Below, piece by piece: positions 917 through 31,250 of a stretch of DNA of 34,288 bases (within the stretch, counting starts at the first letter, position 1; every line of letters starts with the position of its first letter). The translations under genes and the position numbers were made by a program. The notes below the pieces were generated by a model. The model ran no database searches, was not told the DNA's origin, and worked only from the letters and a program-made list of their open reading frames with translations. The DNA comes from a virus. Taxonomy: Duplodnaviria; Caudoviricetes. Location: positions 1 to 34,288 of IMG/VR virus record IMGVR_UViG_3300014656_001808; one strand, 5' to 3'.

Positions 917-1349
917 CGCCCGCCGGCGGATCCGCCAGGTGCAACCCGAGATCAACCGCACACTCAGCGACCAGCCGCGGATTACAATCGTGGCCATGCT
1001 CGATCACCCACCGCGCCGCCTCGCTTACCCGCCACCCGCTGAGCATCATAAAGTGCCGATCCAGCACGTTCCGCACGGCCTGACGCTGCACATCCCGCCA
1101 CTCGCGTTGACGCTCAGCAAACGGCCGGCCCTGACCGGTGTAGAATTGCAGCAGGCCCAGCCGGCGGAGTCGCTGACACGTCTTCGCAATCTGCCCTGCC
1201 ACCAGCCGGATCCCGGTCGCCAGAAAGATCACGTCGATCAGATCGTCATAAGCCACTCCAGCAGCCCACAGCGCCTTATCACGCTCGCACAGCCACCCCT
1301 CAATCACGTTCTGCTGTGTCACCTTCAGCCGGTTTCTGGTCGGTTTCAT
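882..1349 (-). CDS. Hypothetical protein
   Basis: 155-aa ORF directly downstream of, and overlapping, the initiator gene on the same strand; fills the gap to the convergent recombinase; protein-like composition. Confidence 0.55.
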   Translation of the reverse strand: MKPTRNRLKVTQQNVIEGWLCERDKALWAAGVAYDDLIDVIFLATGIRLVAGQIAKTCQRLRRLGLLQFYTGQGRPFAERQREWRDVQRQAVRNVLDRHFMMLSGWRVSEAARWVIEHGHDCNPRLVAECAVDLGLHLADPPAGVTGSLRGGECA

Positions 1350-2370
1350 GGATCAAACTCGCATGAGAGCCAATCTTATCCAGCCACCAGGCCGGCCAGC
1401 CTTCCGCTGGACCGCCCGGCAACTTCATAATGATCTTCCACTCGCGGAACAGCTCCGCCTGCGCCAACGGCAACAACCGCTGCCGCTGCCGCTCGGTCAT
1501 ATCCAGCGCCACCTTCCGCCGCGCCGCCATGACCGGATCGCCGTCGATGTACTGCGTCTGCATCATCGTCGCCGCCTTGCGCGCCATGCCACCTTTGAAG
1601 CCGCGTAGTTCCTTCGGCGCCGTGTACGCCCGCTCCGAACCCACCGACCGCAGCGCCGAGCGCACGTATCCGCCGACCAGCTTCTGCCGCAACCGGCGCG
1701 ACGACTTCGAGGCATACCCCCACTCTAAGCGCTCCATCACCACCTTAACGCCGTAATACTCAACGGTCGCCTTTGCTCCCTGCTGACCATCGGTTGCCCA
1801 CCCCTCAGCGATCAGCAAACCGGCAACTAGATTAATCAAGGCGTCATCAATAACCGACTCAGTTTCGGTCGGCGCGATGGGGTACCTCGTATGCATATTT
1901 ATATCTCTATCTCTATGCTCTATGCGGTAAACCGGGGATAGAGTTTCATAGAATGCAGACCTTAATGGTGGAAGCAAGTCGGCCACGTATTCAGCGTACT
2001 CCTGTGCTATCATAGACTTAAGCGCACAATTCGGGAGCGCATTTAGCGCTCTTCCACACATAATGGCATCATTAATTTTTACGATTGGCTGCCAAGTGCG
2101 CAATTTCGGCGCCCACATTAGTGCGCCTTTTGCATCCACCCTAACTAAAGGCGAAGATCCGTCCGAAAGTTCTTCGAGTGCTTCTTCCGCCTGTTTGACT
2201 TCCCAATTCAGTTCCGCCGCCAGCCCTTCGACGGTCGTGCGCAAACTACCTACAATTGTAGTATGATAATGAGTTGCGACGAAGAAGAAGGCCAGCTTGG
2301 CGTATGTCGAGGCGTCCTTGAATTGCGGGTCATCCCACAGATTTGTCTGGATTTTTCGCCAGTCAGCCAC
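1300..2370 (-). CDS. Putative phage replication initiator (replisome-organiser-like N-terminal winged helix)
   Basis: N-terminus WRKIQTNLWDDPQF..S..AKL.F..V.T..H....G.....E.LA.EL matches the pattern of phage initiator N-domains as I recall it; GTG start with GGAG SD; lies next to dnaB. Confidence 0.7.
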   Translation of the reverse strand: MADWRKIQTNLWDDPQFKDASTYAKLAFFFVATHYHTTIVGSLRTTVEGLAAELNWEVKQAEEALEELSDGSSPLVRVDAKGALMWAPKLRTWQPIVKINDAIMCGRALNALPNCALKSMIAQEYAEYVADLLPPLRSAFYETLSPVYRIEHRDRDINMHTRYPIAPTETESVIDDALINLVAGLLIAEGWATDGQQGAKATVEYYGVKVVMERLEWGYASKSSRRLRQKLVGGYVRSALRSVGSERAYTAPKELRGFKGGMARKAATMMQTQYIDGDPVMAARRKVALDMTERQRQRLLPLAQAELFREWKIIMKLPGGPAEGWPAWWLDKIGSHASLIHETDQKPAEGDTAERD

Positions 2371-2750: not shown

Positions 2751-2940
2751 CCCGTTTTTCCCGGTCCCGCCCGGCGCCGAAGATCGCGGCATTGCCGCCG
2801 CCGACTTCGCCTTTCTGGTCCTCTTGGCCGCCGAGATAATTTCCGACCCTCAGCGCAAGCGCTCCACCGATGAGCACGTCCGCAACGCCAACACGCTAAC
2901 CCATAAATACTTTGAAGCTCTACGACTGGGAGTCTGTTAA
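2740..2940 (+). CDS. Hypothetical protein (66 aa, start MINDP)
   Basis: ATG at 2740 with CAGGAG SD; TAATG overlap with the dnaB start. The track start at 2605 is probably too long. Confidence 0.65.
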   Translation: MINDPFFPVPPGAEDRGIAAADFAFLVLLAAEIISDPQRKRSTDEHVRNANTLTHKYFEALRLGVC

Positions 2941-4355
2941 TGTCCCTGCACGACTTCCCCCTACCGCACAACGACGCCGCGGAGCGCTCCACGCTTGGCA
3001 GCATGCTCCGCGAAGCATATGCGATCGACATGGCCATTGCCACCTTCGCACCCTTCGGCGCCGAAGTGTTCGATGTCCCGGCGCACCAGAAAATCTACAA
3101 GGTCATCACCGAGTTACACGCGCGCGGCAAGCCAATTGACGGCGAGCTGATCCGCGAGCTGGCCACGAAACGCGGCACATGGGACGAGTTCGATGGCTAC
3201 AAGGGCTTAGCCGAGATGATCAACTCCGTAGCTTCGCCACTGCGCGTCGAATACTACGCAAGCATTGTTCGCGACAAGTACCTTTTGCGCAAAATCATGG
3301 GCACCCTGGACCTTTGCGGCCGGAAGATTCAAAAGCACGCCACCGCTGCCGAAGCCATCGAATTCATCCAAGGCGCCATCCTCGATCTCGACCGCCACCG
3401 CGAGATGCACAACGTCCAAACCGCCGGCGAGCTGGCCACCCAGGCTATCAAGTACCTGTCCGAACCCAAAGGCGATCTCCGCGGCCTGTACACGGGCTTC
3501 CCCCGCCTCGATCAATTCCTGGCCGGCCTGCAACCTGGCCAACTGCTCGTAATTGGCGCGCGCCCGGCTGTCGGCAAGACCGCCCTGGCCCTGAACATGG
3601 CCGCCCACATTGCCCTTCAGCGCCACCCGACGCTTTTCTTCTCACTGGAAATGGCCGCCGGCGAGCTGACCAACCGGCTCCTGGCATCCGGCTCACGTGT
3701 CCCTTCGCATAAGCTGCGCAAACGCCCAATTTGGGACCAGGACTTAAAAAAACTGGCTGGCGCCAAAGATGTACTGCTCGACTCGAAGCTGTACATCGAC
3801 GATTCCAGCACACATACGATCCACTCCTTGCGCTCGGTCGCCCGCGTCGTGCATAACCGCCACCGCATCGAATGCATTTTCGTCGATTACCTGCAATTGC
3901 TCCGCGATCCCGAGTCCGCCAGGCGCAGCCGGCAGGAAGAAGTTGCCCGGATCAGCGGCTCGCTCAAGGCCCTGGCCCGCGACCTGGAGATCCCGGTAGT
4001 GGTTGTCTGCCAGCTCAACCGCCAACCCGACATCCACCAGAAGAAACCGCGCATGAGCGACCTGCGTGAATCGGGCGCGATCGAGCAGGACGCCGACGTG
4101 GTCCTGCTACTGCATCGCGATTTATATGCCCGGGAGGTCAAGGCCGACGAGAATCCGGACCCGACCGAAGTATCCGACGCCGAGCTGATCATTGCCAAGC
4201 AGCGTAACGGGCCGGTCGGCGTAATCAAGCTGCACTGGCACGCGAAGTACACCCGTTTCGACGTTCCGGCCGACCAGACCGCCAAACTTCTGTACGGCGA
4301 CGAGAAGGCCGGCTACGACCCCGCCGACGACCTGCCCTACGACGTTGACGTATAA
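2940..4355 (+). CDS. dnaB: Replicative DNA helicase DnaB
   Basis: PH...AE...LG N-domain, Walker A GARPAVGKT, FSLEM, Walker B IFVDYLQLL, QLNR, DLRESGAIEQDAD, IAKQRNGP. Confidence 0.97.
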   Translation: MSLHDFPLPHNDAAERSTLGSMLREAYAIDMAIATFAPFGAEVFDVPAHQKIYKVITELHARGKPIDGELIRELATKRGTWDEFDGYKGLAEMINSVASPLRVEYYASIVRDKYLLRKIMGTLDLCGRKIQKHATAAEAIEFIQGAILDLDRHREMHNVQTAGELATQAIKYLSEPKGDLRGLYTGFPRLDQFLAGLQPGQLLVIGARPAVGKTALALNMAAHIALQRHPTLFFSLEMAAGELTNRLLASGSRVPSHKLRKRPIWDQDLKKLAGAKDVLLDSKLYIDDSSTHTIHSLRSVARVVHNRHRIECIFVDYLQLLRDPESARRSRQEEVARISGSLKALARDLEIPVVVVCQLNRQPDIHQKKPRMSDLRESGAIEQDADVVLLLHRDLYAREVKADENPDPTEVSDAELIIAKQRNGPVGVIKLHWHAKYTRFDVPADQTAKLLYGDEKAGYDPADDLPYDVDV

Positions 4356-6423: not shown

Positions 6424-7136
6424 TGCCACCAGATTCCAGCGACATACAACGCGAAGAAGACAGTAAAAGCCTGGCCGCCAATCTATCCCAGGACTTGACC
6501 GCCCACATTGCCCTTCAGCGCCACCAGCATGAGCAGCTTCAGTCCCTCACCGACCAGCTCGAAGTCCTGCGCAAAGACAGCATAAAAGAATTCAACAAAT
6601 GCCGCAACGACCTGGCCAGCCACAACGAACGCATCACCAGGGTCGAAAAACCCCTTTCAATCTACGCCGACGACGTTTACACCGTCGCCCGCTACAAAAC
6701 CGACGTTCTTCCTCTCGACCAGCGCCTCAGCGCCCTCGAAACCCACTTCGCCCGCAATTTCCCACAAAGCATTATTCCCCTGGTCACCGCTGAGGAAAAA
6801 GACCAGCATTCCAGCGTTATGCTGGACTTATTAAAGTCTATCGCCTTCCACGAACGGATGCACATCGAGATAAGAAGCGCCCGCCAGAAGTACCCGCCCC
6901 TGGTCTCGATCCAGGAAGCCTACACCGTAATTCTGAAGCAGATTGACGATCTGCGCCGACAGGTATTCCAAAAGGGCCGGCGCGACGTTCCGGACATCCT
7001 GAAGCAACTGGTCCAGATCGCCACCATGTCGTGCCGCGCCGCCGAGGATCTACATTTAATGGACCCCGACAAAGCCCGGATCGCAGCCGCCCCCGACGGC
7101 GCCGCCGTACCTGTAAGCAGGATACCAAACCCATGA
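6423..7136 (+). CDS. Coiled-coil protein with C-terminal degenerate MazG-like (all-alpha NTP pyrophosphatase) domain
   Basis: ATG at 6423 with AAAGGAG SD; C-terminus EIRSARQKYP...S.QEAY.VI....DDL...V......LVQIATM..R..EDL follows the phage MazG-like pattern. Confidence 0.6.
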   Translation: MPPDSSDIQREEDSKSLAANLSQDLTAHIALQRHQHEQLQSLTDQLEVLRKDSIKEFNKCRNDLASHNERITRVEKPLSIYADDVYTVARYKTDVLPLDQRLSALETHFARNFPQSIIPLVTAEEKDQHSSVMLDLLKSIAFHERMHIEIRSARQKYPPLVSIQEAYTVILKQIDDLRRQVFQKGRRDVPDILKQLVQIATMSCRAAEDLHLMDPDKARIAAAPDGAAVPVSRIPNP

Positions 7137-7627
7137 ACAAAGAATTGAACTCGCCGATCCGGCTCAGCGCAGAGGACAATGCCGTTATCAACCGAATTAT
7201 TTCTCATCAGTTAGTGCATCTGCGCGGGATTCTGGCCAGCGTTGACGCCATTTGTGAATTCCTGGACGAATCAGATGTGCTACCCGACGACGAAGACAAC
7301 CCCGCGGTTTTTGAGCGGGCCACGATAACCGGCCGCATCGAACGCGCCATCCTTGATTGCCAGGATGGCGTTTATCTGGACTCAGATGGCAGATCAGTAC
7401 CTTACTGCCGCCTTTCAGAACCAGATGCAGCCACCATGCGCCAGCGCGAACTGGAAGTTTTAGCGGATCCAGATTTACAGGTGTATCTTGATCTTCTCGG
7501 TCGTACCTATGGCGGCGAATGGAAACCGCTCGTTGGCTGCGGACACGCTATAAAAACCGGCTTTTCCTTCAAAGGCATCGCCGTTTATTACGCTAAAGAC
7601 GGCCCCCCAACAGACGCCGCCAGGTAG
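7133..7627 (+). CDS. Hypothetical protein (lower GC, last early gene)
   Basis: ATG at 7133 with ATGA overlap and AGGA SD; 164 aa. Confidence 0.7.
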   Translation: MNKELNSPIRLSAEDNAVINRIISHQLVHLRGILASVDAICEFLDESDVLPDDEDNPAVFERATITGRIERAILDCQDGVYLDSDGRSVPYCRLSEPDAATMRQRELEVLADPDLQVYLDLLGRTYGGEWKPLVGCGHAIKTGFSFKGIAVYYAKDGPPTDAAR

Positions 7628-7670
7628 GACAAAGCTCCGCTTTTTAGCGAATCATGAATTTCTAAAATCG

Positions 7671-10600
7671 CTATTCATCCTTCGCCTCTCTCTCCTCATA
7701 CCTCCGCGTCAGCTCATCGAGCCGGTCGCGGAATTTCTTTTCCCCCTCGGCATTTCCCGCTTCTTTCGCCACCTTAATCTTCTTCGTCAGCGGCAAATAA
7801 ACTTGACCGTACCAATGGTTCAAGCGCCGGCGGCGAATGTCATCCCGCTCACTCAGTCGCTCCTTACCCAGCCGCCTCAACTTAAAGTGTTCACTGGTCA
7901 TCCGGCGCACTTTGGACGGCAGGCCCAACCGGAATCTTTCCCTCTCGGCGTCATCGCGCTCCAGTTCGGCCCATTCCATCTCGCTGCGACCCCGATCGGT
8001 GACGCGCAACAGCCGGCTCAACCAGGGCGCACCCTTAATCACCGTCTCGGCATACGATTCGTCGTCTTCCCCAAACGGCCCGCCTAACACCGGCTCCAGC
8101 AACGGATGCGCGATTTGCGACAACACGCCGAACTTATCGGCCGTCCAGCTCAGCATGCGCCTGGCCGAATCCCAGCCACCAACTTCATAATCCGCCTCCG
8201 GCACGATCGGCTCGCGAAAAAATGGATCAGTCGGATTGCTCCCCATCGCATACTGCGCCCACTTCGAGACAATCTCAAACGGCGGGCCTGTTGTACCCAG
8301 GAACTCGCCGACGGACTCAAACAGCATATCCTTAGCGGCGTTCTCAGCAGATCCGCGTGTCGTGTGCTTGCCGGCCAGTTCGGCCATCGCGTCCAGCCCC
8401 GCCGAAATAATGTTGCCCATGACTTTACCGGCGTCGTCCTGCGGCAATGTCAGTACGACCACCTTACCCTCATCGTCGCCCGGCCCTTTGATCGTTCCCA
8501 GAGGTATCGCGTCGTAATTATCACGGAAATATGAACTTATGGCCTCGTACATCGCCTGAATCGTCACACCGAACGCGCCCCACAAGGCCGCTTTCTTCAT
8601 CAGCGCCGGCAACAGCGTCCAGCGCACTCGATACCACCAGTAGGCCGCGGCCGTGTCCTTATTGAACGCGGCGTCTTTCTCCTGTTCCCAGCTATTCCAC
8701 TTCACCTTGGAATACATTTTTACCGTGTTGGTAATACTGGTCGCCAGCCCGTATTGCTTCCAATCCGGCGTACCGCCCTTCTTGCGCACGATCATGGCCC
8801 GCTCCTGGCCTGTGATCCCGCGCTTCCCGAGAATCCGGAAGACCGCGACCTTCATCGCCGCTTCCTGAATGATCCCCACGTCTTCCAGCCCTTCCAGCAG
8901 GCCACCCACATGGCGCATCACCCGGTTGCGCGTCTTCTCTTCGTCCATCAGTCCGTGCTGTTTGAGCATCTTCTCAAACAGCTCGGCTTCCGGTGTCGGA
9001 CTCTCGCTGGTCACGTCGATGTACGGTGTGCTGAGCGCCCGCTCGCGATACATCTGCTCGATTTCCGGATCATCCTGCCCCCACGCTCGGCGTATGGCCG
9101 CGCCCATCGCCTTGCCGTACTCTTTCACCACTTCGGCCGTGGTCACCTGCGGAAAATCGCTTATAGCTTGCGCCTTAGCCGCGTCTTTCGCCGTACCCTC
9201 GGCGACCAGTTTCCGCACCCGCCGAGCCCGCTGCCTGCTCATTTCGGCCTGAAGAAGCACCGCCGTCCGCTGTATGTCACGGCCGGGATTGTGTGCCTGG
9301 AACCCCGGCATCAGAGCGACCAGTAGCGGATGCCATATCTTGTATTCCCGACTGCCCAAAAACCGCCCGACATTGTCCAGCCAGCCGATGTTATGGGTCA
9401 TAAACTGCCGCGCGATCGGCACCGGCACGGACGCAACCTGCACCTGGCCATCGTTCATGCGATAGAGCCATTTGCGCCCGGGCGGCGGATTGCGTTTCAT
9501 CTGCCGCGCCCCGTAGGGCAGTTTTTCCACGGTCAGATCCTCTGGAAAGTCGTGTTTCAGCACTTCCCACAGCTTGTTTTTGGCCTTCTGAACCGTGATA
9601 TGCCGCGCTAGCGTCCAGAACTTCATTATCGTCCCGTGGAACGGGTTAAGATTTTCGCTCCACGTACCGACCTGCTTATAGATACCGGGTCCGACCGTCG
9701 CCTCGGTCATGTGCCGGAAGATAACGAACGCCGCGTAGGTGTCTTTGTGCGGCTCGATCTTCTCGGCGTGTGCCTTGGCGCCGTAAAAGCCCACGTCGCG
9801 CGCCTCGACGGTCATATCATAGGCGATGTCGTGAAACTTTCGCGCCAGCGCCTCCAGTTTGGCGTACTTCTCGTCCCCTAAATTTCGCCGCATGTATTCA
9901 AGCTGCTTTTGGGCTTCTTCCGGCACCCAGCCTTCCGGATTCGGCTTATCGGCCCGATCGTGAATCACCCGTTGCATTTGCAGGTAGTCGCCAATGTCGT
10001 AATCGCCCATCCCGGCCTCTTGCAGCGGCTTCTGGACGTAATTGCGCATGTCGCGCAGCAGATCGACTCCCCGCGCATTAGGGTCGAACATCTCGTCCAT
10101 CGCGTAATGCGCGTCACGCGCCCGCTGAAGTGCCGCCTCATCGGCCCCGCGCTTCTCCAGCCGCGGTTCTAGGTGCTTGGTAGGCGCGATCTTATTGACC
10201 ATGTATTGGCTGACGGTCTGTTCGGCCATCTCGCGCCAGCTCAGCCGCGCCGCCTGGATCATGGCCGCGTTGGCCCGCACCTTGTCCGTTCCGCGATCGT
10301 ACATCGCGTGCAGATTTTCCGCCCGTTGTGCCCCGAGCTGGTCGGCGTCGCCGTTCAGATTGATTTGCAGCTTGATATAGGCATCCAGCCACTCCGGCTT
10401 GCGGTTCAGGTACTCGCAGAACCCCCGGAAAAACATCGGCGCGCGCAATTCGAGTTCACCCGGCGTGTTCAGCATGACGCTCAGGGCTTGCGCGTACAAC
10501 TCGCGGCTGCTGTCGCGATATTTGCGATAGCTTCTGGACGCCCGCCGGCGATCCCACGGCGTCCACCACTGCGACAGATCGACCAGCTCGCGACGCAGAA

Positions 10601-13600
10601 CCTTCTCGTCGAGCAGTTGCCGTCGGCGGACTTCTTCCTCGATCAGTTCCCGCCAGCGCTTTCGCACTTCCTGGGCGTCCGGCGTGTGCTCCTCGATCTT
10701 CCGCATGACCTTCCGGCCGGTTGGTATTTCGCGCACGGCGGCGAACTCCTGAAGTTCTTCCGGCACCACGCCGCGTAACGCCTGCATGACAATGTCTTTC
10801 TTCTCGGCGGCGTTCAGCCGCTTGACATAATCCTCCAGTTTCTTGTTGATCTCCTGCCCGATGGTGTGGTTCCAGATGGCCTTGACATCCTCGGGCGTAA
10901 TCGGTGTGCTCTCGCGGATAACCTCATCGACCTCGATCTCGCCGCCGGTGGTCAGTTCCAGCTTAGCCTGGCGCCTGAGTTCTTTCTTCTCGGCTTCCGT
11001 CAATGGTCCGGGCGCCCCTGGAAACGGCGCCATGAACCGTTCCAGGTGTCCCCGCAAACTGGCGATCCGCCCGAGTATGTTACCACGCTTGAGTGTGCCT
11101 TCCGGGATATAGTCCGTCAGGTGTCCCACCTCATGCGCCAGCACCATTGCCAGCAGTTTCGGATCTTCAGCCGCGCGTGGATCGATCTCAATATCGCCAG
11201 CCTGCCACGGCACATCGGCCTCGATGGCCCGGAACTGACCGAGTCTGGAAGCCCGCAACCGTTTGATCCGCGGCGCCCGTCCGAGTAGCTCCTTGGCGAA
11301 TTGGTACAATTCGGGCATCGGCACGCCCTTGAGCGGCATGCGGTCGCCGATCTTACCTTCCGCCCTGGCTTCTTTTGGCGTCCAGTCGATCCGCACTTGC
11401 CCCTCGTCGGCCACCGCAAACGCCGTCCCCCCACCCCCACCTTTCCCCTTCTCGGTAGGACGAAGATTCTCTTCGTCCCCCTTCTCAACTTCCTCAGCCG
11501 CCTTCTCCTTCTCGACTGGCTCAACCAGCTCTTCTTTCGTCGGCACCGCCGCGTAAAACTGGTCGGCTTCGGTCAACCCCTTAATTGTCAGCCCATCGTC
11601 GCCCTTCAGCAGATCCACGTTGACCCGGATGGTATCCCCTTCCTTGGCCGTTTCGGGCACGGCGATCCCGATCGCTTCCGGCCGGCGGAAGATGTACGAC
11701 CCCCCATCTTGATAGTACAGCGCCTTTCTGGCATTCTCGCCACTGCCTTCCTCAAACACGGTGAACACCGGATCCAGCGCGAATTCCGGCACGGACGCGA
11801 TGAAATTTTTCAGTCTTTGCAGACTATCCCGCGCCGTGCTTAAATCATTTGCCTTCTGTCCGCGATACGCCTCTTCCCAAGGCACCACTTTCAATTCCCA
11901 TTTCGGTTCCGTCCGCTCCGCCGCCCGCTGCACCGCCCGCTTAGCCACCTGCTTCGACATTTTCGGCGGAACTTTTGGCGCCAGCGGCTTGAGTGGTTTT
12001 CTTTTCTTGTTTTCCTCCCGCTCGATCCACTCCCGCGCCTTTTCCGTAGGCGCATCCGGCGGCCCGGCTTCCTGCCTGCGCCGATACTGTTCACTCAGCC
12101 TCTCGTTCGCCACCTCCCTCAATGCATCCAGTCGGACCCGGTCCATGGCAGTCAGATGATCCGGCATGTCGGACATCTCTTCAGCCAGCTTTTCAAGTTC
12201 ATACCAGGGATATTCTCTGATAATTCCTCGGTACTCTTCCAGCGCTTCTTCTTCACCCGCCCGCTTCAACTCCAGCACTTCGCGTTCCAGATCGTCGATC
12301 TGCTCCCGTCGCTTATAATGTTCCCCCAGCATGGCATCATTGCGCTTACTTAACCGCTGAAACTTCGGATCGGCCAGTATGGCTTCGTGCTCCACTCTAC
12401 GCCGCGCGTTCGCCCGTTTGGCCATGACCCCCTTGCCCTTGCGCCCCACCGCTTGCTCGGCTTCGGCCGCCTTCTCCGCCACACCCTCGACCACCTTACG
12501 CTGCGTTTGCTGCAAAGCCTTATAGACCAGATCCCGCTTTTTCTGTGTGGCACGATCTTCAACTTCGATCTTCTCGATTTGCTTTTTCAGCCCCTTGATC
12601 TCCACCGCCTTCCGCTTGCCAGCTTCCGGCGGCGGCACTTCCCGCACATGCCCCCGCCGCCCTGTTTCGGTTCCTGGCTCACGCTTAACCTCCGGTTCCT
12701 TGGCCCCCATTTCCCCTGTACTGATTTCAGCCGACCCTAACCCCTCCCCCTCCCCTTTGCGTTCAACCTGCGCGATCTCTGGCGTTCCTTCCCCCGCCTC
12801 CGCCGCTCCTGGAGCCCCTGGCGCCGCTATCGCCTTGTTGCCTTGTTGCCTTGTTGCCTCGATGCCTTCTTCCTCTTTGCCTTCTCGACCTTTTTCAGTG
12901 TCCCGAACACGTAGGCCCGTTTCCGGTCCCCGGTCAACCCCTGCCGGTTGGCCCTTCTCACCAGTTGCTTGTGCAATTTCACCGGCATCCTCGACCTCCT
13001 TTTCCGCCGGCCGCTCCAGCGCCGCTTGCAGGAACCCCGCGAACCAGGCCCGTTCGTCGCTCGTCCATTTATCCGGACCACCCCGCGGCGCAATCTTACC
13101 AAACGGCCCCCTGGCCGATACCGATCCCGCATCCTCGAATTCCTTCACAATCGCCCTAGCCGCCCCCGGCTCGGCATCCGCGAACTTGTTCGCCCCCTCC
13201 TGCGTCATCAGATCCGTTTTCCGCCAGGCCGGACGAGGCTCCGCCTTGCCAGTCACCTTCCGCTTTGCTTCCGGTTTTTCCTTCCGCCAGGCCATCCGCT
13301 CCGCGATTTTCTTGTTAAGGTATTCCAGCCGCTTCGCATCGTTCGGATCCAGCTTCGACGTGCGTGTTAGTTGGTCCTGCATCTTGAACAGCAAATCATC
13401 CGTCGATTTCTCGACCACGTCCCTGAAAGTCTTGCCCTTCTTGGCTAACTCCTTCTGCCGAATCTCGACCAGCTCCACGATCGCCCGCGACGCCGGCTCA
13501 TCGGCCGCCTTGCCCTTATGCTTCGCGTGCAGGCCACTCAGCCCCTCTTCCGTCTGCTGCCAAACGAACCGTTGCAGCTCGGCATGCCGGGCCGCCACTT

Positions 13601-14681
13601 CTCGGCCCTGCCGCGCCACTTCCGCCTGGACCTGCCGCGCGTACCCGGTGATCTGATCGACTGATTTGGCCCCGCGGAATTTCTTCTCGTACTTCTTCCG
13701 CAGCCCCCGATAACCCGCGAACGTCGGCGGGATCAGCATCGACAGAATAGTTTCGGTCGTGTCCGCGCCTTCCACGTAAGCGATCCCACCGAACAGCCCC
13801 GACTCCACCGCCGTCCGGGCCCCCACCTCCGCCGCCCCCTTGGCCGGTATCGACCCGATCCCATGCAGCGTGGCCCCCATGACGAACCCGGCCCCTGGCT
13901 GACCGCCGTTGAACTGGTTCTCGATCTCGAAGGTCAGCGGCGTAGCCCAGCGCGCCGGCATCCTGGCCGGCAAGAGTTTCCGGAAGATCGCCAGTTGCAG
14001 GATGAACCCGGCCAGCCCGGTCCCGACATCGATCGTCTTTTCCATCACCCCTTCCGCTTCCGGCACTTCGATGTTGAGCGTCCCCCGCTCCGCCGCCAAC
14101 TCCGCCAGCGCCAGATCCTTGTGCGTCACTTCCGGCATCGGATACTTTTTTTGTATCCGCGGCCCCTCGAAGAGCAAATCCATGAACATTTCCGGATCGT
14201 AAACGTCCTTCCGCATCTTGCCGTAACGGTCGTACTTGACCACTTCATCGAACGCTTCCAGCCGTTTGCGGAAAACCTTCTGCCGCTCGACCCGGTCGGC
14301 CTCTTCGGCATAGTCTTCCGTCGCCACCGTACTGAACCGCAGCTTCTCCACCGGACTCATAATAATGTTTAATGTCTGCTTCCCCAACCGCATCAACGGC
14401 CCATCCCGCTCCGGCTCTTTTTGCGGGTAGGCCAAAGCTCCAGCTTTGTCAGCCGCCGCCGGCTCCCCGCGTACCATCTGTCGTTCCGGAGCCCCACCGG
14501 CCCAGATGATCGAGTCTCTCATTCGCTGATCCACGATCTGATCGATCCGTTCCAGCATATCCTGGCCGGGCGCCGTTTCTATCTCGGCTGGCTCAACCTG
14601 GCCGGCCAGTACCCGGTCCATCCGGCTCAGCAGATCCGGGTAGGGCGATGTTTCACTTCGTCCAGTCTGCAACGTACTCAT
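7671..14681 (-). CDS. Giant polyvalent/ejection protein with zincin-like metallopeptidase motif and LPD38-like C-terminus
   Basis: 2336 aa, last gene of the morphogenesis operon; LAHEVGH at 11121-11135 and a distal ELYAQ; C-terminal N.TDPFFREPIVP pattern resembles LPD38; long charged low-complexity linker. Confidence 0.75.
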   Translation of the reverse strand: MSTLQTGRSETSPYPDLLSRMDRVLAGQVEPAEIETAPGQDMLERIDQIVDQRMRDSIIWAGGAPERQMVRGEPAAADKAGALAYPQKEPERDGPLMRLGKQTLNIIMSPVEKLRFSTVATEDYAEEADRVERQKVFRKRLEAFDEVVKYDRYGKMRKDVYDPEMFMDLLFEGPRIQKKYPMPEVTHKDLALAELAAERGTLNIEVPEAEGVMEKTIDVGTGLAGFILQLAIFRKLLPARMPARWATPLTFEIENQFNGGQPGAGFVMGATLHGIGSIPAKGAAEVGARTAVESGLFGGIAYVEGADTTETILSMLIPPTFAGYRGLRKKYEKKFRGAKSVDQITGYARQVQAEVARQGREVAARHAELQRFVWQQTEEGLSGLHAKHKGKAADEPASRAIVELVEIRQKELAKKGKTFRDVVEKSTDDLLFKMQDQLTRTSKLDPNDAKRLEYLNKKIAERMAWRKEKPEAKRKVTGKAEPRPAWRKTDLMTQEGANKFADAEPGAARAIVKEFEDAGSVSARGPFGKIAPRGGPDKWTSDERAWFAGFLQAALERPAEKEVEDAGEIAQATGEKGQPAGVDRGPETGLRVRDTEKGREGKEEEGIEATRQQGNKAIAAPGAPGAAEAGEGTPEIAQVERKGEGEGLGSAEISTGEMGAKEPEVKREPGTETGRRGHVREVPPPEAGKRKAVEIKGLKKQIEKIEVEDRATQKKRDLVYKALQQTQRKVVEGVAEKAAEAEQAVGRKGKGVMAKRANARRRVEHEAILADPKFQRLSKRNDAMLGEHYKRREQIDDLEREVLELKRAGEEEALEEYRGIIREYPWYELEKLAEEMSDMPDHLTAMDRVRLDALREVANERLSEQYRRRQEAGPPDAPTEKAREWIEREENKKRKPLKPLAPKVPPKMSKQVAKRAVQRAAERTEPKWELKVVPWEEAYRGQKANDLSTARDSLQRLKNFIASVPEFALDPVFTVFEEGSGENARKALYYQDGGSYIFRRPEAIGIAVPETAKEGDTIRVNVDLLKGDDGLTIKGLTEADQFYAAVPTKEELVEPVEKEKAAEEVEKGDEENLRPTEKGKGGGGGTAFAVADEGQVRIDWTPKEARAEGKIGDRMPLKGVPMPELYQFAKELLGRAPRIKRLRASRLGQFRAIEADVPWQAGDIEIDPRAAEDPKLLAMVLAHEVGHLTDYIPEGTLKRGNILGRIASLRGHLERFMAPFPGAPGPLTEAEKKELRRQAKLELTTGGEIEVDEVIRESTPITPEDVKAIWNHTIGQEINKKLEDYVKRLNAAEKKDIVMQALRGVVPEELQEFAAVREIPTGRKVMRKIEEHTPDAQEVRKRWRELIEEEVRRRQLLDEKVLRRELVDLSQWWTPWDRRRASRSYRKYRDSSRELYAQALSVMLNTPGELELRAPMFFRGFCEYLNRKPEWLDAYIKLQINLNGDADQLGAQRAENLHAMYDRGTDKVRANAAMIQAARLSWREMAEQTVSQYMVNKIAPTKHLEPRLEKRGADEAALQRARDAHYAMDEMFDPNARGVDLLRDMRNYVQKPLQEAGMGDYDIGDYLQMQRVIHDRADKPNPEGWVPEEAQKQLEYMRRNLGDEKYAKLEALARKFHDIAYDMTVEARDVGFYGAKAHAEKIEPHKDTYAAFVIFRHMTEATVGPGIYKQVGTWSENLNPFHGTIMKFWTLARHITVQKAKNKLWEVLKHDFPEDLTVEKLPYGARQMKRNPPPGRKWLYRMNDGQVQVASVPVPIARQFMTHNIGWLDNVGRFLGSREYKIWHPLLVALMPGFQAHNPGRDIQRTAVLLQAEMSRQRARRVRKLVAEGTAKDAAKAQAISDFPQVTTAEVVKEYGKAMGAAIRRAWGQDDPEIEQMYRERALSTPYIDVTSESPTPEAELFEKMLKQHGLMDEEKTRNRVMRHVGGLLEGLEDVGIIQEAAMKVAVFRILGKRGITGQERAMIVRKKGGTPDWKQYGLATSITNTVKMYSKVKWNSWEQEKDAAFNKDTAAAYWWYRVRWTLLPALMKKAALWGAFGVTIQAMYEAISSYFRDNYDAIPLGTIKGPGDDEGKVVVLTLPQDDAGKVMGNIISAGLDAMAELAGKHTTRGSAENAAKDMLFESVGEFLGTTGPPFEIVSKWAQYAMGSNPTDPFFREPIVPEADYEVGGWDSARRMLSWTADKFGVLSQIAHPLLEPVLGGPFGEDDESYAETVIKGAPWLSRLLRVTDRGRSEMEWAELERDDAERERFRLGLPSKVRRMTSEHFKLRRLGKERLSERDDIRRRRLNHWYGQVYLPLTKKIKVAKEAGNAEGEKKFRDRLDELTRRYEEREAKDE
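12827..12988 (-). CDS. Nested 53-aa basic protein in the +1 frame of the giant gene
   Basis: Perfect AAGGAGG SD (13001-12995) 6 nt before the ATG; MPVKLHKQLVRRANRQGLTGDRKRAYVFGTLKKVEKAKRKK... Confidence 0.55.
   Translation of the reverse strand: MPVKLHKQLVRRANRQGLTGDRKRAYVFGTLKKVEKAKRKKASRQQGNKATRR
12832..12859. repeat. 8-bp tandem repeat (GCCTTGTT) x3.5
   Basis: Read directly at 12832-12859. Confidence 0.9.
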
Positions 14682-16222: not shown

Positions 16223-18067
16223 TTATTCCTCCGCCGGCTCAGTACGACGAAGATTCTCTTCGTCGATAACGCCAAACATCGAATCAACCAGCACGCCACC
16301 CACCGCGTAAGGCCCACCGTCAACCAGCATCAGATCACCACACTCATCCGGCGCCGCAACTTTTAGATTCTCGAAGACCGTCACCGGACCACCGGCACCC
16401 TTTAGCACGTCACCCGGCCGCACCTCCACCGCCGGCCGCCCGCCGATGGTATGCGTTTCGGTCAGCGTCACGTCACCGTGCGAGGTCACCACCTTCACAA
16501 ACTTATTGCTATCCGGATGCGGCGGGCCGAGATCCTTGGCCACCACTGTATCAAAACCATTGGCACCCAATACCTGATCGCCAAGTTGCACATCTCGTAA
16601 TCGCCGCGTCCCCCGCGCCGTCACCACCGGCGCATCATCCGCCAAACAGACGAACATCTTGGCCGCCATCACCGGGAGTGCCGTGCCAAACAGCGATCCA
16701 ATACCCGCCGCCGTGCCAACCCCGGCCGCCGTTCCCGCCATCGTCCCACCCATGCCGGCAAGGAACGACTGCGAACTACTCGGCGCCGAGTCGCGGTACT
16801 CATCACCGGCCGATCCCACGCCCAGGTTGTACGACCGCTGCGCCGCCATCATCGGATCCGGATACTGGTTGTTGATTCCGCTCAGCACGTTGACCAGGTT
16901 CATCGCCAGGTCACCGCGCCAGCCGAGTTCGTCCTGCCAGCTCCGTTCGTCCGCCCCGATCATCTGGTCACTCAACAGCGCGTCGATGCTCCGCCGCGCC
17001 CCTTGCGACCGCTCCAGGGCACTCAGATAATCGCCCGAAAGCTGCGTCTGGTAGCCCAGTTCTTCGCGCCGCAAACCTTCCTTCAACCGCCCGACCGATT
17101 CCTGCTTCTGGCTTTCGACCCCGGCCGCCACGCCCGGCGCCATGGTCGAGCCCGACAGCCCCAGATCGACCAGCCGTTGCTGCTGCTGTGAATTCAGATT
17201 GTCGTAGTCCCGCCGAATATCCTTCTCGGCCTGCTCACCGAGCCCCTTGAGCTTTTCCATCGCGGCTTCGTAGCGCCCGGAGTAACCTTGCAGCGCCAGC
17301 GGCAGCGCTTCGTTGAGCGCCCCTTGCAACTCCTGCCGCTTGGCCATGTAAGCCGCTTCCTTCGCGGCGACGGCATTGATCTCGTCGGCCTCCGCCTTGG
17401 TCATATCCAGCGTACCGCCCGCCTCCGTCGCCTGCGCCTGCTGTTTGGGTGCATACTTCTCACCAAACGTATTCCACAGCCAGGCATCCCAGCCTTGTTC
17501 GTCCATGCCCGCCCTATGCAACCCGGTCCCGGCCAGTCCACCCGGCCCTTCCCAGGTGTTATAGCGCGCCTCCATCTCAGCTTTCTTGTGCTCCGGCAAC
17601 CAGCTCAGGTCGAACTTGCCACGCACTAACGGTTGCCCGCCACCCCCACCGCCCGCGCGCCGCGTCGGCTGCGCCACACCACCGCCGCCCGCCTGCTGAC
17701 CGCCCATCGGCCCCATCACGTTGATCGCCGGCGGAACCTGCCCATAGGCCGAGCGGTACACGTCTTGCGCCCCGGGCCCGCCCATCAGCGCCGCCGTGTC
17801 CACGTCCACGCCGGTCAACAGCCGGTTGGCCTGCCCCTGGCGCAAGCCCTGCGTCCGCGCCGGACCCTGCGCGAACATCTGCCCGCCGTAACCTTCCAGG
17901 TTGCCGAAGATCCCCCGGATCTCATCCAGGATGCGCTGATTGGCCGCGGTAGCTTCGTCGGTGGCATATTGCGTCCCCACGCCGCCGATCAGGTTCATAA
18001 TCAGCCGCTCGATTTCGGTGTTGGCGCCCCCACCCGCCAGCCTTAATGCTTTACCCAGAAAACCCAT
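16223..18067 (-). CDS. Putative DNA ejection/pilot protein with C-terminal Hint domain
   Basis: Gly/Ala/Gln-rich coiled body typical of podovirus ejection proteins; from Cys474 CLADDAPVVTARGTRRLRDVQLGDQVL...LTETH...VRPGD...GDLML..GGPYAVGGVLVDS matches Hint blocks A, B, F and G. Confidence 0.8.
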   Translation of the reverse strand: MGFLGKALRLAGGGANTEIERLIMNLIGGVGTQYATDEATAANQRILDEIRGIFGNLEGYGGQMFAQGPARTQGLRQGQANRLLTGVDVDTAALMGGPGAQDVYRSAYGQVPPAINVMGPMGGQQAGGGGVAQPTRRAGGGGGGQPLVRGKFDLSWLPEHKKAEMEARYNTWEGPGGLAGTGLHRAGMDEQGWDAWLWNTFGEKYAPKQQAQATEAGGTLDMTKAEADEINAVAAKEAAYMAKRQELQGALNEALPLALQGYSGRYEAAMEKLKGLGEQAEKDIRRDYDNLNSQQQQRLVDLGLSGSTMAPGVAAGVESQKQESVGRLKEGLRREELGYQTQLSGDYLSALERSQGARRSIDALLSDQMIGADERSWQDELGWRGDLAMNLVNVLSGINNQYPDPMMAAQRSYNLGVGSAGDEYRDSAPSSSQSFLAGMGGTMAGTAAGVGTAAGIGSLFGTALPVMAAKMFVCLADDAPVVTARGTRRLRDVQLGDQVLGANGFDTVVAKDLGPPHPDSNKFVKVVTSHGDVTLTETHTIGGRPAVEVRPGDVLKGAGGPVTVFENLKVAAPDECGDLMLVDGGPYAVGGVLVDSMFGVIDEENLRRTEPAEE

Positions 18068-27873: not shown

Positions 27874-28926
27874 CTAGATCGCCGGGCCGATCAGAATGCC
27901 GTTCTGCCTTCGATCGCGACAGACCAGGTTGCCTTCCCCGTCGATAAACACTGCCAGCACCGTGTGCTTGTTAGCCACCGGTTGCGGCTTGCCTTCAACC
28001 AGGAACCCACCCGGCTTGACGCACCACTCGATCGTGGACCAATCGACCGCCACGATCTGCTGATTCGTCTTGGTGTCGAGTGCCGGCACCCAGCGAACCG
28101 GGTGCCGCTTGAAGATCACCTCATCGAAATACATACCCAGGTCCGGACCATGGTTGTCATTCTGCTGACGGGCCCGTTTCTCCGCCGCTTCCAGCGTGTA
28201 CTCGTCTGTGTAGTACACCTGCTGATCGCGGGCTTCGGTGTAGTTCTCCTGAGTCGGCCGCGGTGCGATGAAGTTAGTCTTCCGGTGCATCCGCGCCCAC
28301 TTCTTGATAAGGTCATCTTCCCCGAATGTCGTCCAGGAGTGGGTCCAATTCCGCCACTGCGCGTGCGTCAGTCCACCGGAAGGATTGGCGTGTCCGCTCG
28401 GCGTGATGCCGCCGAACTCGCCCGCACCGGTAGTTGCCGATGCGCCGGTGATTTTGCTCACGATCCAGTAGAAGATTCCAAACGGTGTCAACGTGTCAGT
28501 GTCGCCCGGCGGATCGGCCCAGAATTTCGCTTCCAGGTACTTGACCAGCGCCGCCTGGCCCTGCTCGCGCCGGATCTTGTACAGATCCAGAATGCGGACC
28601 GGGTCGGTGTTATGGTCAATCTCACCCTGGTCAAAGCTGAAATTCGCGGTAACCTTTTTCCACTGCACGACGACTTCGTGCAGACCGTCCACGACGGCCA
28701 GTACGTCATCGTCGTACATGGCGGTGGCCCGTGCCGAGCCGTTGTCTTCGCCCAGCACGTTCCGCCGAATATCCGTTCCGGGCAACTCTTTAGTCGCCTG
28801 CTCGGTCAGTATCTTGGGGGCCGCGTGGTACCGCTGAAGCGTGTACATCAAGGTGGTGTACTTCAGCCGGTCCAGCCCTTCCTGACTTGCCAGCAGGAGA
28901 TCAGCCAATTCCGCGATCGTAATCAC
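27874..28926 (-). CDS. Major capsid protein (HK97 fold)
   Basis: 350 aa directly after the scaffold; GAGG SD with GTG start; W.NW, F...P..WVP.LD, N..C.DRR.NG C-terminal pattern of a phage capsid family. Confidence 0.8.
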   Translation of the reverse strand: MITIAELADLLLASQEGLDRLKYTTLMYTLQRYHAAPKILTEQATKELPGTDIRRNVLGEDNGSARATAMYDDDVLAVVDGLHEVVVQWKKVTANFSFDQGEIDHNTDPVRILDLYKIRREQGQAALVKYLEAKFWADPPGDTDTLTPFGIFYWIVSKITGASATTGAGEFGGITPSGHANPSGGLTHAQWRNWTHSWTTFGEDDLIKKWARMHRKTNFIAPRPTQENYTEARDQQVYYTDEYTLEAAEKRARQQNDNHGPDLGMYFDEVIFKRHPVRWVPALDTKTNQQIVAVDWSTIEWCVKPGGFLVEGKPQPVANKHTVLAVFIDGEGNLVCRDRRQNGILIGPAI

Positions 28927-30227: not shown

Positions 30228-31250
30228 CTACTCGCGACGGCCCGCCGCAGTCTCACCGGATGTCTCTTTAACGTCGCTCCAATAATTCCGCAAGGGGTAC
30301 CCCGGAATTTTATCCGCCACGGCGAACCCCGCCGCGTGTTTGTGACCGCCGCCGCCGTACATTTTGGCGATCTCGGAAACGTCCACGCTGCCCTTCCCCC
30401 GCAGTTGGTAGACGTACTTTCCATCCATAAACGACCAGCTCGCCACGAATCCATGCCACCCGGACACGCCCGAGAAACCTTCCCAGACTTTATCATCGAT
30501 CAACGGCCGTTCCGACTGCGCCTTGGCGTACAAGCGCACGATCATCCGGTCGCACACGTCGGAAGCCAGCATATAGGGCGCGTTGACGCACAGGCACTCG
30601 TCCGGCCCGATGGCGACCTTGTCCAGCTCGATCACTTCCGGATTCTTGATCAATTGGATCGCCGCCTTCTCCTGCCACCGCCGGATCGCGATACCTTCCT
30701 GGAACAGCGTATCCAGTGGCTCCACCCGCACCATTTCATCGAAGCCCGCAAAATCAAAGTCGTAGGCATACAGCGCCGCGCAAATTTCGCGCGTCTGATC
30801 CATCCGGAACCGCCACAGATCCCGATCCTCGATATGCCGCAGCAGTTGCGGCACGTCTTCGCCCGGGCAGAAGTATTTCCACGCCAGCACGGCCCCCGAC
30901 TGGTTCATATCGAAGATACAATCGTCCAACCCTTCCAACTCGCTGGCGGCCGACTGGTGATGGTCGATCACCACCACCTTCCTCATCTTGCGCCACTGCT
31001 CGATCTCTTTCCGCGGGATACTGTAGTCCACCAGGTAAACAGTAGCCCGCCCATCAGCCCGCAAAGACGGCACCTTCCCGTACCCCGCCGGCATGTATTC
31101 CGCCCGGTCCCCGAATTTCCGCCAGGCCGCGTAAGCCGCCCCGAACCCGTCCAGGCACCCGGCGTGATAGATCACCACCGGCCTGTCGCAATCCTCATCT
31201 TTTGTGGGACCGGTTTGCAACCGGTCATTCTGCTCTTCAACCATCGTCAA
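30228..31250 (-). CDS. DHH/DHHA1 family phosphoesterase
   Basis: IYH..C.DGFGAA, LVDYS, VIDHH, SGA.LAW, IEDRDLW, GGGGHKHAAGF; AAGGAAGG SD. Confidence 0.92.
   Translation of the reverse strand: MTMVEEQNDRLQTGPTKDEDCDRPVVIYHAGCLDGFGAAYAAWRKFGDRAEYMPAGYGKVPSLRADGRATVYLVDYSIPRKEIEQWRKMRKVVVIDHHQSAASELEGLDDCIFDMNQSGAVLAWKYFCPGEDVPQLLRHIEDRDLWRFRMDQTREICAALYAYDFDFAGFDEMVRVEPLDTLFQEGIAIRRWQEKAAIQLIKNPEVIELDKVAIGPDECLCVNAPYMLASDVCDRMIVRLYAKAQSERPLIDDKVWEGFSGVSGWHGFVASWSFMDGKYVYQLRGKGSVDVSEIAKMYGGGGHKHAAGFAVADKIPGYPLRNYWSDVKETSGETAAGRRE

Follow-up and report, generated by a model that had tools for sequence, protein, structure and literature searches.

A gene within a giant gene

Can DNA that already encodes part of a giant phage protein hold a complete second gene in another frame of the same strand and, if so, is that gene alive and how did it get there? 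These questions are raised by the virus record IMGVR_UViG_3300014656_001808 (Caudoviricetes), a 34-kb linear record of which positions 1 to 34,288, the window, were analysed. Over a linker of a giant protein of polyvalent or ejection type, the first-pass annotation of this DNA had noted a perfect Shine-Dalgarno (SD) sequence, a 6-nt spacer and an ATG which opens a very basic frame of 53 amino acids (aa) in the +1 frame, and had offered two explanations: a dual-coding region that expresses a DNA-condensing or core-type peptide, or a captured gene which the giant protein now reads through out of frame. Here we report that the small gene belongs to a family of phage proteins, most members of which are encoded by ordinary stand-alone genes. 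We propose that a complete small late gene, in existence beforehand, was probably taken up into the linker of the giant gene in the +1 frame and is probably still translated, its product being, more tentatively, a head accessory.

The signals proved to be letter for letter as described and lie on the minus strand, which the annotation had not specified. The nested gene runs from the ATG at 12988-12986 to a TAG at 12829-12827, and specifies a peptide with a pI of 12 (19 Lys/Arg and 2 Asp/Glu residues), without Cys and without a hydrophobic signal stretch. The SD region is predicted to be open in structure and ranks second in this respect among 43 +1-frame ATGs of the giant gene. A start at position 13132, giving 101 aa, was rejected; family homology begins at the Met of 12988. 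A contig from a separate study (run X4), spanning 12748-13889, is identical in sequence, which rules out an assembly error, and reads from eight runs revealed neither variants nor indels in the nested gene. Many of the short read matches at 12832-12875 represent the 8-nt repeat of other organisms. Both frames of the window's own repeat (12832-12883) encode the same seven residues, and a change by one unit in either direction would put both out of register, which could cut the giant protein at approximately 620 aa or fuse the peptide to the C-terminal part of the giant. The window's giant gene contains a second +1-frame candidate at 12587-12682 (minus strand), with a GTG start, a five-base SD and 31 codons specifying a basic product; no similar open reading frame (ORF) was found in the other giants examined.

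A family of small basic proteins

An exhaustive search with the peptide returned 42 representatives at E≤0.001, most of which align Met1 to Met1 (one repetitive 283-aa match was omitted from alignment A2), while a word-based search gave one match from one candidate. Among viral contigs, 435 of 578 candidate stretches were confirmed as members by the alignment-based profile, and the pattern scan leads to an estimate of about 820 stretches. The likeness to a stand-alone small phage protein, proposed in the annotation, is thus to a real phage family, as yet unnamed. Approximately 95% of its members are stand-alone and 4-5% are nested. The window peptide matches over its full length from Met1, scoring 61.4 bits on a profile built from stand-alone members only. 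Residues M1, P2, L9, Y26, G29 and T30 are unvarying across 135 rows, several of them having been fixed beforehand by the search patterns.

Scans of the Pfam, PHROG and NCBIfam libraries revealed single weak matches and no model shared by the family. In the atlas, unnamed clusters of 42-46 aa were found at 0.91-0.92; the nearest named entries, DUF6496 and DUF7218, at 0.76-0.79, are leads only. Using three members, tblastn gave no match in cultured phages, a search in which the low-complexity filter may mask basic queries. One candidate, a 17-residue, chance-level match within a 375-aa ORF (L002), was rejected as a family member. No paper on the family or its nesting was located in the literature covered, which leaves out most subscription journals.

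Might the window's frame be open by accident, with GGAGG arising by chance from the Glu-Val-Glu-Asp codons of the linker? When the host's codons were shuffled synonymously, the host protein being held fixed, 1,782 of 5,000 shuffles retained the start and 36 open codons. On its own, a basic +1 frame without stops is thus nothing unusual for this linker, and four or more SD bases precede 11% of the other +1 ATGs. Against this, the family-profile score of the window peptide is 87.5 compared with -28.5 +/- 15.9 in the shuffles, a distance of seven standard deviations which none of the 5,000 bridged, and elsewhere in the two remaining frames of the host's strand the profile scores -34 at best. The same test on each of 23 nested genes gave 0 of 5,000 shuffles attaining the family score (rows with an indel were left out here, as well as from the reduced-set and codon-position trees discussed below). 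With 25 more independent nested cases, coincidence is refuted and its residual probability is negligible.

Recurrence of nesting

There are 26 distinct nested sequences, and in these the small gene lies without exception in the +1 frame of its host; none of the four locus searches revealed a giant ORF with a family gene in the other same-strand frame. Searches without any tuning towards nesting placed 2 of 57 and 5 of 103 distinct genes within a giant or open-ended frame. Using a nesting-permissive pattern, 18 of 52 viral loci were located in frames of at least 1,000 codons, the window's own phage included, and 10 of 15 loci from prokaryote genome bins were nested, three or four of them on cut contigs. 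The pattern which yielded most nested cases fixed M1, P2, L5, L9 and the Tyr-x-Tyr-Gly-Thr motif. The nested count is a lower bound, metagenome contigs being outside the scan; L257 was missed by the script in the genome-bin scan. After removal of near-duplicates, the 26 nested genes could be compared with 110 stand-alone genes. The nested copy is the sole family match in 27 of 27 nested-host genomes, including all eight virus records that are at least 90% complete, and the window likewise contains one family match, the nested copy.

The hosts resemble one another only patchily, and their polyvalent domains differ, with no domain common to all. Pfam matches were obtained for 10 of the 18 hosts scanned, e.g. 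to LPD14, LPD23, LPD38, ART-PolyVal, PBECR5, SLT and RadC, with further matches to C39 peptidase and strawberry-notch helicase. The nestings in long ORFs are all in giant virion-type genes, except for L230 (see below), and the site mostly lies in the N-terminal half of the host protein; a hydrophobic segment often precedes it (15 of 26 at the chosen cut-off). When a profile of the host frame was run on the 120 homologues listed for the window's giant, the signature was detected in the giant itself and in P0031 and in none of the other 118 distant homologues listed; in a large database the profile matched 14 proteins, several of which represent the same loci. P0031 carries, at residues 414-460, the host-frame signature of the other peptide subfamily (E=3e-12).

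A search of 46 giant frames for another nested family gave 138 candidate ORFs, of which those of the present family alone formed a cluster. Six other giants possess +1-frame ORFs of 33-102 codons with a strong SD, at host codons 995 (L260), 649 (L243), 780 (L249), 882 (L267), 674 (L268) and 1475 (L002), which are protein-like by eye and mutually dissimilar. A linker motif of another small-gene family had no match among the 120 giant homologues listed.

Selection on both frames

On the profile of stand-alone members, the median score is 68.0 bits for the 26 nested genes and 68.5 bits for the 110 stand-alone genes, and positions not fixed by the search pattern are mostly as conserved in nested as in stand-alone copies. 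Pairwise identity among nested genes is 0.57 in the peptide frame versus 0.32 in the host frame. An SD of at least four contiguous bases precedes 22 of 26 nested genes, 68 of 109 stand-alone genes and 169 of 1,550 other +1 ATGs of the hosts; for at least five bases the figures are 19/26, 27/109 and 34/1,550, respectively. Many stand-alone copies show overlapping stop-start codons, apparently reflecting translational coupling, and the stronger SD of nested genes fits with the fact that such coupling is impossible when nested.

The host frame has left its own marks. Synonymous T residues which would create a host stop occur at 0 of 122 sites versus 200 of 579. Harmless T is also depleted, being found at 17 of 262 nested sites (6.5%) versus a median of 41% in the host frames of the same genomes (p=3e-8), and there is no such depletion in stand-alone genes (37.7% versus 40% in their own genomes). 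In the stretch over the nested genes, the host frame specifies abundant Glu, Gly, Arg and Ala and almost no Cys, Trp or Phe. Between related pairs, differences by host codon position were 17/3/2 (L204-L256) and 10/9/4 (L213-L268), and in L236-L244 host-wobble differences numbered 0 of 46 in the SD and core versus 14 of 90 upstream (p=0.003). The hosts of the latter pair are near-identical through the nested gene and diverge just downstream, resembling a recombination joint at its end.

Since wobble positions have been remodelled and the peptide and its SD preserved, both frames are under selection. This result applies to the family as a whole; for the window, the runs contained no close variants. 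These sequence patterns suggest that the giant frame runs on through the site, where it has taken the form of a hydrophilic linker, and that the small protein has been retained, and we consider live dual coding to be very likely. The annotation's proposal of a dual-coding region is accordingly supported by marks of selection in both frames.

A number of observations count against live dual coding. In the sole RNA run (X10), contigs match other parts of the giant gene and none covers the start, although contigs cannot demonstrate expression. The pair nearest to the window, L003-L241, lacks the codon-position pattern (12/14/10), and two residues are less conserved when nested, namely A25 (12/23 versus 93/108) and G17 (16/23 versus 90/108). 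A search with fixed pattern positions could not, moreover, find decayed copies.

Perhaps, then, the gene was recently swallowed and is a silent relic, mere linker filler. The fact that only intact copies could be found by the searches used is in keeping with this, as is the host-type frame being open by chance in 9 of 98 stand-alone genes, which implies that few changes would be required for capture. A relic is, however, hard to reconcile with wobble positions that are heavily remodelled while peptide, start and SD equal or better those of stand-alone genes, with the nested copy being the only one in every one of the 27 genomes, or with the unchanged core and SD of L236-L244 next to varying host wobble sites upstream. 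We judge it to be highly improbable.

Origin of the nested state

If the gene is live, was it captured or was it born in place? Capture is probably the direction of origin. It is favoured by the patchy similarity and differing domains of the hosts, by the restriction of the host-frame signature to two of the homologues listed for the window's giant, by the preponderance of stand-alone members, by the mixed subfamilies (four of four motif-defined subfamilies contain both nested and stand-alone members), by the nearest neighbours of nested peptides, which are stand-alone at least as often as nested, and by L230. At this last locus (7088-8167) an unrelated, non-giant upstream ORF of 359 aa continues across the whole small gene to end two codons beyond it, and it could possibly represent an intermediate of capture. 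Phylogenetic tests likewise bear upon the number of events. A single clade of nested copies was rejected on codon positions 1+2 (p-AU 0.02) and on a reduced set (p-AU 0.0002), the latter biased in that its 17 stand-alone rows were chosen as nearest neighbours. Repeated, independent capture is likely from these comparisons, favoured but unproven.

The points which tell against capture, and particularly against its repetition, are these. The full protein set does not reject a single nested clade (p-AU 0.06). The nested label is somewhat clustered, requiring 20 changes versus 24.1 (5 of 500 shuffles) in one tree and 18 versus 21.4 (7 of 500) in a second; such clustering was seen in two of three full trees, built from alignments of only 38-72 columns. 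Among close relatives of the window's giant, none turned up in which the site is empty. In addition, the window and locus L241 share an N-terminal module of 44% identity together with the peptide subfamily, which suggests some inheritance of the nested state.

The alternative is that the family was born by +1 overprinting in an acidic linker, or became nested once in the distant past, and that the stand-alone genes represent repeated escapes. The frequency with which the +1 frame of such linkers is open and basic in the shuffles would suit this explanation, as would the usual position of the site in the first half of the host, often past a hydrophobic segment, the module and subfamily common to the window and L241, and the survival of a single clade in the full protein set. 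Escape would nevertheless have to account for a nested share of only 4-5%, stand-alone members in every subfamily, the stand-alone nearest neighbours, the rejection of a single clade in two data sets and the absence of the low-T wobble signature from stand-alone genes. On balance this origin seems improbable. The word 'overprinted' used in the annotation, taken as de novo birth in the frame, is therefore not supported: most members are ordinary stand-alone genes, and homologues of the host show no conservation of the stretch in the host frame. A captured gene read out of frame by the giant is the better-supported origin. The annotation's two explanations are not mutually exclusive, and the balance of evidence is for a captured gene whose function has been maintained.

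Capture might proceed through recombination at the linker, or the genes on either side of a small gene might become fused by read-through; it probably took place more than once. Why the frame is always +1 may be explained by constraints of the genetic code. Read one base back, purine-ending Lys, Arg and Glu codons would give Glu, Gly, Ala and Arg, which are suited to a disordered linker, and Leu-Lys and Leu-Glu pairs would place stop codons in the third frame. The host-type frame was open in 14 of 103 genes and the other frame in 5. On the late polycistronic mRNA some ribosomes would start internally at the small gene and others would read the giant frame through.

The annotation had suggested that this is one way in which giant proteins grow, which stands only modestly, as a captured stretch adds only about 40-55 linker residues. 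A wider proposal, to which we give an even chance, is that the disordered linkers of giant genes are recurrent landing sites for small basic genes, where one family has been captured many times independently because its lysine-rich codons, shifted back by one base, specify a glutamate-rich linker, the two frames then co-adapting and the nested genes marking old joints. If so, giant genes would amount to compact operons in which further late genes lie hidden, and the joints would reflect fusion or recombination between an N-terminal ejection module and variable cargo.

Structure, neighbours and likely function

The structure model consists of two helices (residues 3-16 and 20-52) forming a hairpin, with a pLDDT of 91.5; the Tyr-x-aromatic-Gly-Thr motif is invariant and the basic tail variable. 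Foldseek gave no match at E≤0.001 in PDB or BFVD, the best BFVD row being an uncharacterised 53-aa phage protein (E=0.006). The best Z in a VIA structure search was 6.0, which is unspecific and within the range of common helical arrangements. A sequence search of PDB gave nothing below E=0.19, and a homodimer prediction (score 0.01) was uninformative either way. Identity as a ribosomal bS21-like protein was considered and dropped, there being no match of any kind.

We also scanned 143 genes that neighbour stand-alone members, 20 of the 163 being left out as opposite-strand or near-duplicate cases, and 47 had a named PHROG. Of these, 24 belong to the head, packaging or virion class (portal, terminase, scaffold and capsid), and the others are six protease, six endolysin, nine DNA-metabolism and two lipoprotein genes. 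PHROG 4689 (9/143) and PHROG 8198 (5/143), both without an assigned function, recur beside stand-alone loci such as L005, L025, L035, L037, L079, L101 and L160 and L012, L042, L080, L105 and L143, and are possible functional partners of the family. The predicted fold, charge and neighbours make the annotation's DNA-condensing or core-type peptide plausible, and from them we tentatively propose that the product is a packaged, DNA-neutralising, nucleic-acid-binding accessory of the late head or packaging apparatus, an assignment for which the chances are slightly below even. Weighing against it, the searches above gave no sequence or structure match to a protein of known function; the neighbour counts are without a background control, with 96 of 143 lacking a named function; and DNA-metabolism genes make up 9 of the 47 named neighbours.

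Coliphage phiX174 J and the T4 internal proteins are small, basic phage proteins that are packaged. They are likewise very basic and encoded with virion genes, and serve as a working analogy only, structure and sequence searches having revealed no sequence or fold relationship to them.

A live gene might instead have a role outside the head, as a partner of the giant protein (a chaperone or intragenic inhibitor, comparable to the pairing of Rz1 with Rz) or as a late RNA- or ribosome-binding regulator. Nesting within long ORFs, bar L230, is seen in giant virion-type genes and not in other long genes, a basic peptide and an acidic linker carry complementary charge, and genes-within-genes which inhibit the host protein have been described for Rpn (bioRxiv 10.1101/2023.05.02.539157). 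The hosts, however, have no domain in common, stand-alone copies usually have portal, terminase, scaffold, capsid, protease or lysis genes as neighbours, a giant frame is present in only 2 of 24 stand-alone loci of at least 8 kb, and giant genes may simply be those with long, tolerant linkers. We therefore regard such a role as unlikely, and prefer the head accessory.

Genomic context of the window

The features of the window that bear on the nested gene are collected in Table 1. The giant protein exceeds 1,000 aa and is encoded among virion genes, in agreement with polyvalent proteins in size and context, and in library scans it has itself no Pfam, PHROG or NCBIfam match. Its residues 1050-1500 have 248 homologues, some of which contain LPD, RadC, ART or SLT Pfam domains. 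The only close relatives that turned up were its own contig and the phage of L241, whose host protein also bears a nested copy, downstream of the shared N-terminal module. An internal promoter-like site was looked for in the giant gene and none was found. Terminator-like hairpins are as frequent in shuffles as in the window (7 found versus 7.9 expected by chance).

Table 1. Features of the nested gene, its host gene and the late block in the window.
Feature	Position	Strand	Remarks
Shine-Dalgarno AAGGAGG	12995..13001	-	6-nt spacer to ATG
Nested gene, 53 codons, predicted basic helical-hairpin protein	12827..12988	-	+1 frame of giant gene
Family core, codons 1-36	12881..12988	-	conserved
8-nt tandem repeat in variable basic tail	12832..12883	.	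6.6 copies, 77% matches
In-frame upstream ATG of +1 frame (101 aa)	13130..13132	-	weaker SD
Host giant ORF, 2,336 aa, polyvalent/ejection type	7671..14681	-	last gene of late block
Host codons 565-618, hydrophilic Glu/Gly/Ala-rich linker on same bases	12828..12989	-	
Host N-terminal module, residues 186-408	13458..14126	-	44% identity to host of locus L241
Host residues 1050-1500 with HExxH motif	10182..11534	-	putative zincin-like metallopeptidase
Terminator-like hairpin just 3' of giant gene	7636..7651	-	consensus match only
Podovirus-type major capsid gene, same late block	27874..28926	-	NF033394, 84.2 bits (cut-off 80)

Elsewhere in the window, a DHH phosphoesterase gene (30228-31250, minus strand; PHROG 4771, E=8e-72) lies inside the head-gene block. 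A serine recombinase/integrase (191-916) and a DnaB-like helicase (2940-4355) are encoded on the plus strand. The ORF at 1300-2370 (minus strand), with a weak DnaD-like loader match, overlaps two plus-strand ORFs on the opposite strand. A 614-aa protein (16223-18067, minus strand) shows a weak match to a Hint module at residues 468-541 (E=0.011, under the cut-off).

Significance and comparison with known systems

The family offers a natural, replicated system for the study of how long same-strand overlaps arise, by a route distinct from both de novo overprinting and homing. With free and nested forms in one family, the cost and the sequence changes of dual coding are directly measurable, and wobble remodelling is already visible. 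There are practical consequences as well. Gene callers overlook a conserved late protein in phages with nested hosts, apparent motifs in the linkers of polyvalent proteins may be shadows of another frame, and hundreds of family members are without a Pfam, PHROG or NCBIfam model.

Polyvalent proteins of phages are multidomain proteins of giant size whose genes lie among those for the virion (Iyer et al. 2017, PMC5512222), and the nesting hosts resemble them, the domains recognised in hosts or in their homologues being of the MPTase, LPD, ART, PBECR, SLT, RadC or helicase types. The main text of that paper does not contain the words 'overlap' or 'small protein', and its two uses of 'nested' both concern a hairpin fold.

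In the actinophage ShiLan, an HNH endonuclease has been inserted out of frame in a methylase, which reads through it as a tolerated loop (PMC11855218). The present genes are similar in that a pre-existing gene lies out of frame and the host frame reads through it without stops. They differ in specifying peptides of 36-57 aa with two helices, without a nuclease motif or family match and with no evident self-mobility; unlike a homing endonuclease, the nested gene resembles a late gene kept for the benefit of the phage. Genes remodelled out of frame have also been described in the E. coli pangenome, where such regions are reported to be short and disordered (PMC8788219). There too, a segment of one protein traces back to a different gene read in an alternative frame, whereas in our case the donor is intact, with its own start signal, and a single family recurs in many phages.

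The closest parallel is Rz1 of coliphage lambda, an embedded +1 gene within Rz on the DNA of a flexible linker of its host, and one that annotation often misses (PMC6139136). As with Rz1, the nested gene lies whole inside a larger gene of the same strand, in the +1 frame, over a flexible linker and with its own start signal. The spanins form a fixed functional pair; the present peptide has no spanin features and is not a lipoprotein, and its host is a 2,336-aa protein of polyvalent type. In the spanin survey, no family was found to have both embedded and separated members and there was no frame bias (PMC6139136), while the family described here is mostly stand-alone, occurs in many non-homologous hosts and is always in +1 when nested. 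The arrangement thus belongs with embedded genes of the Rz1 kind, in a new form in which a mostly free family is lodged in many unrelated hosts.

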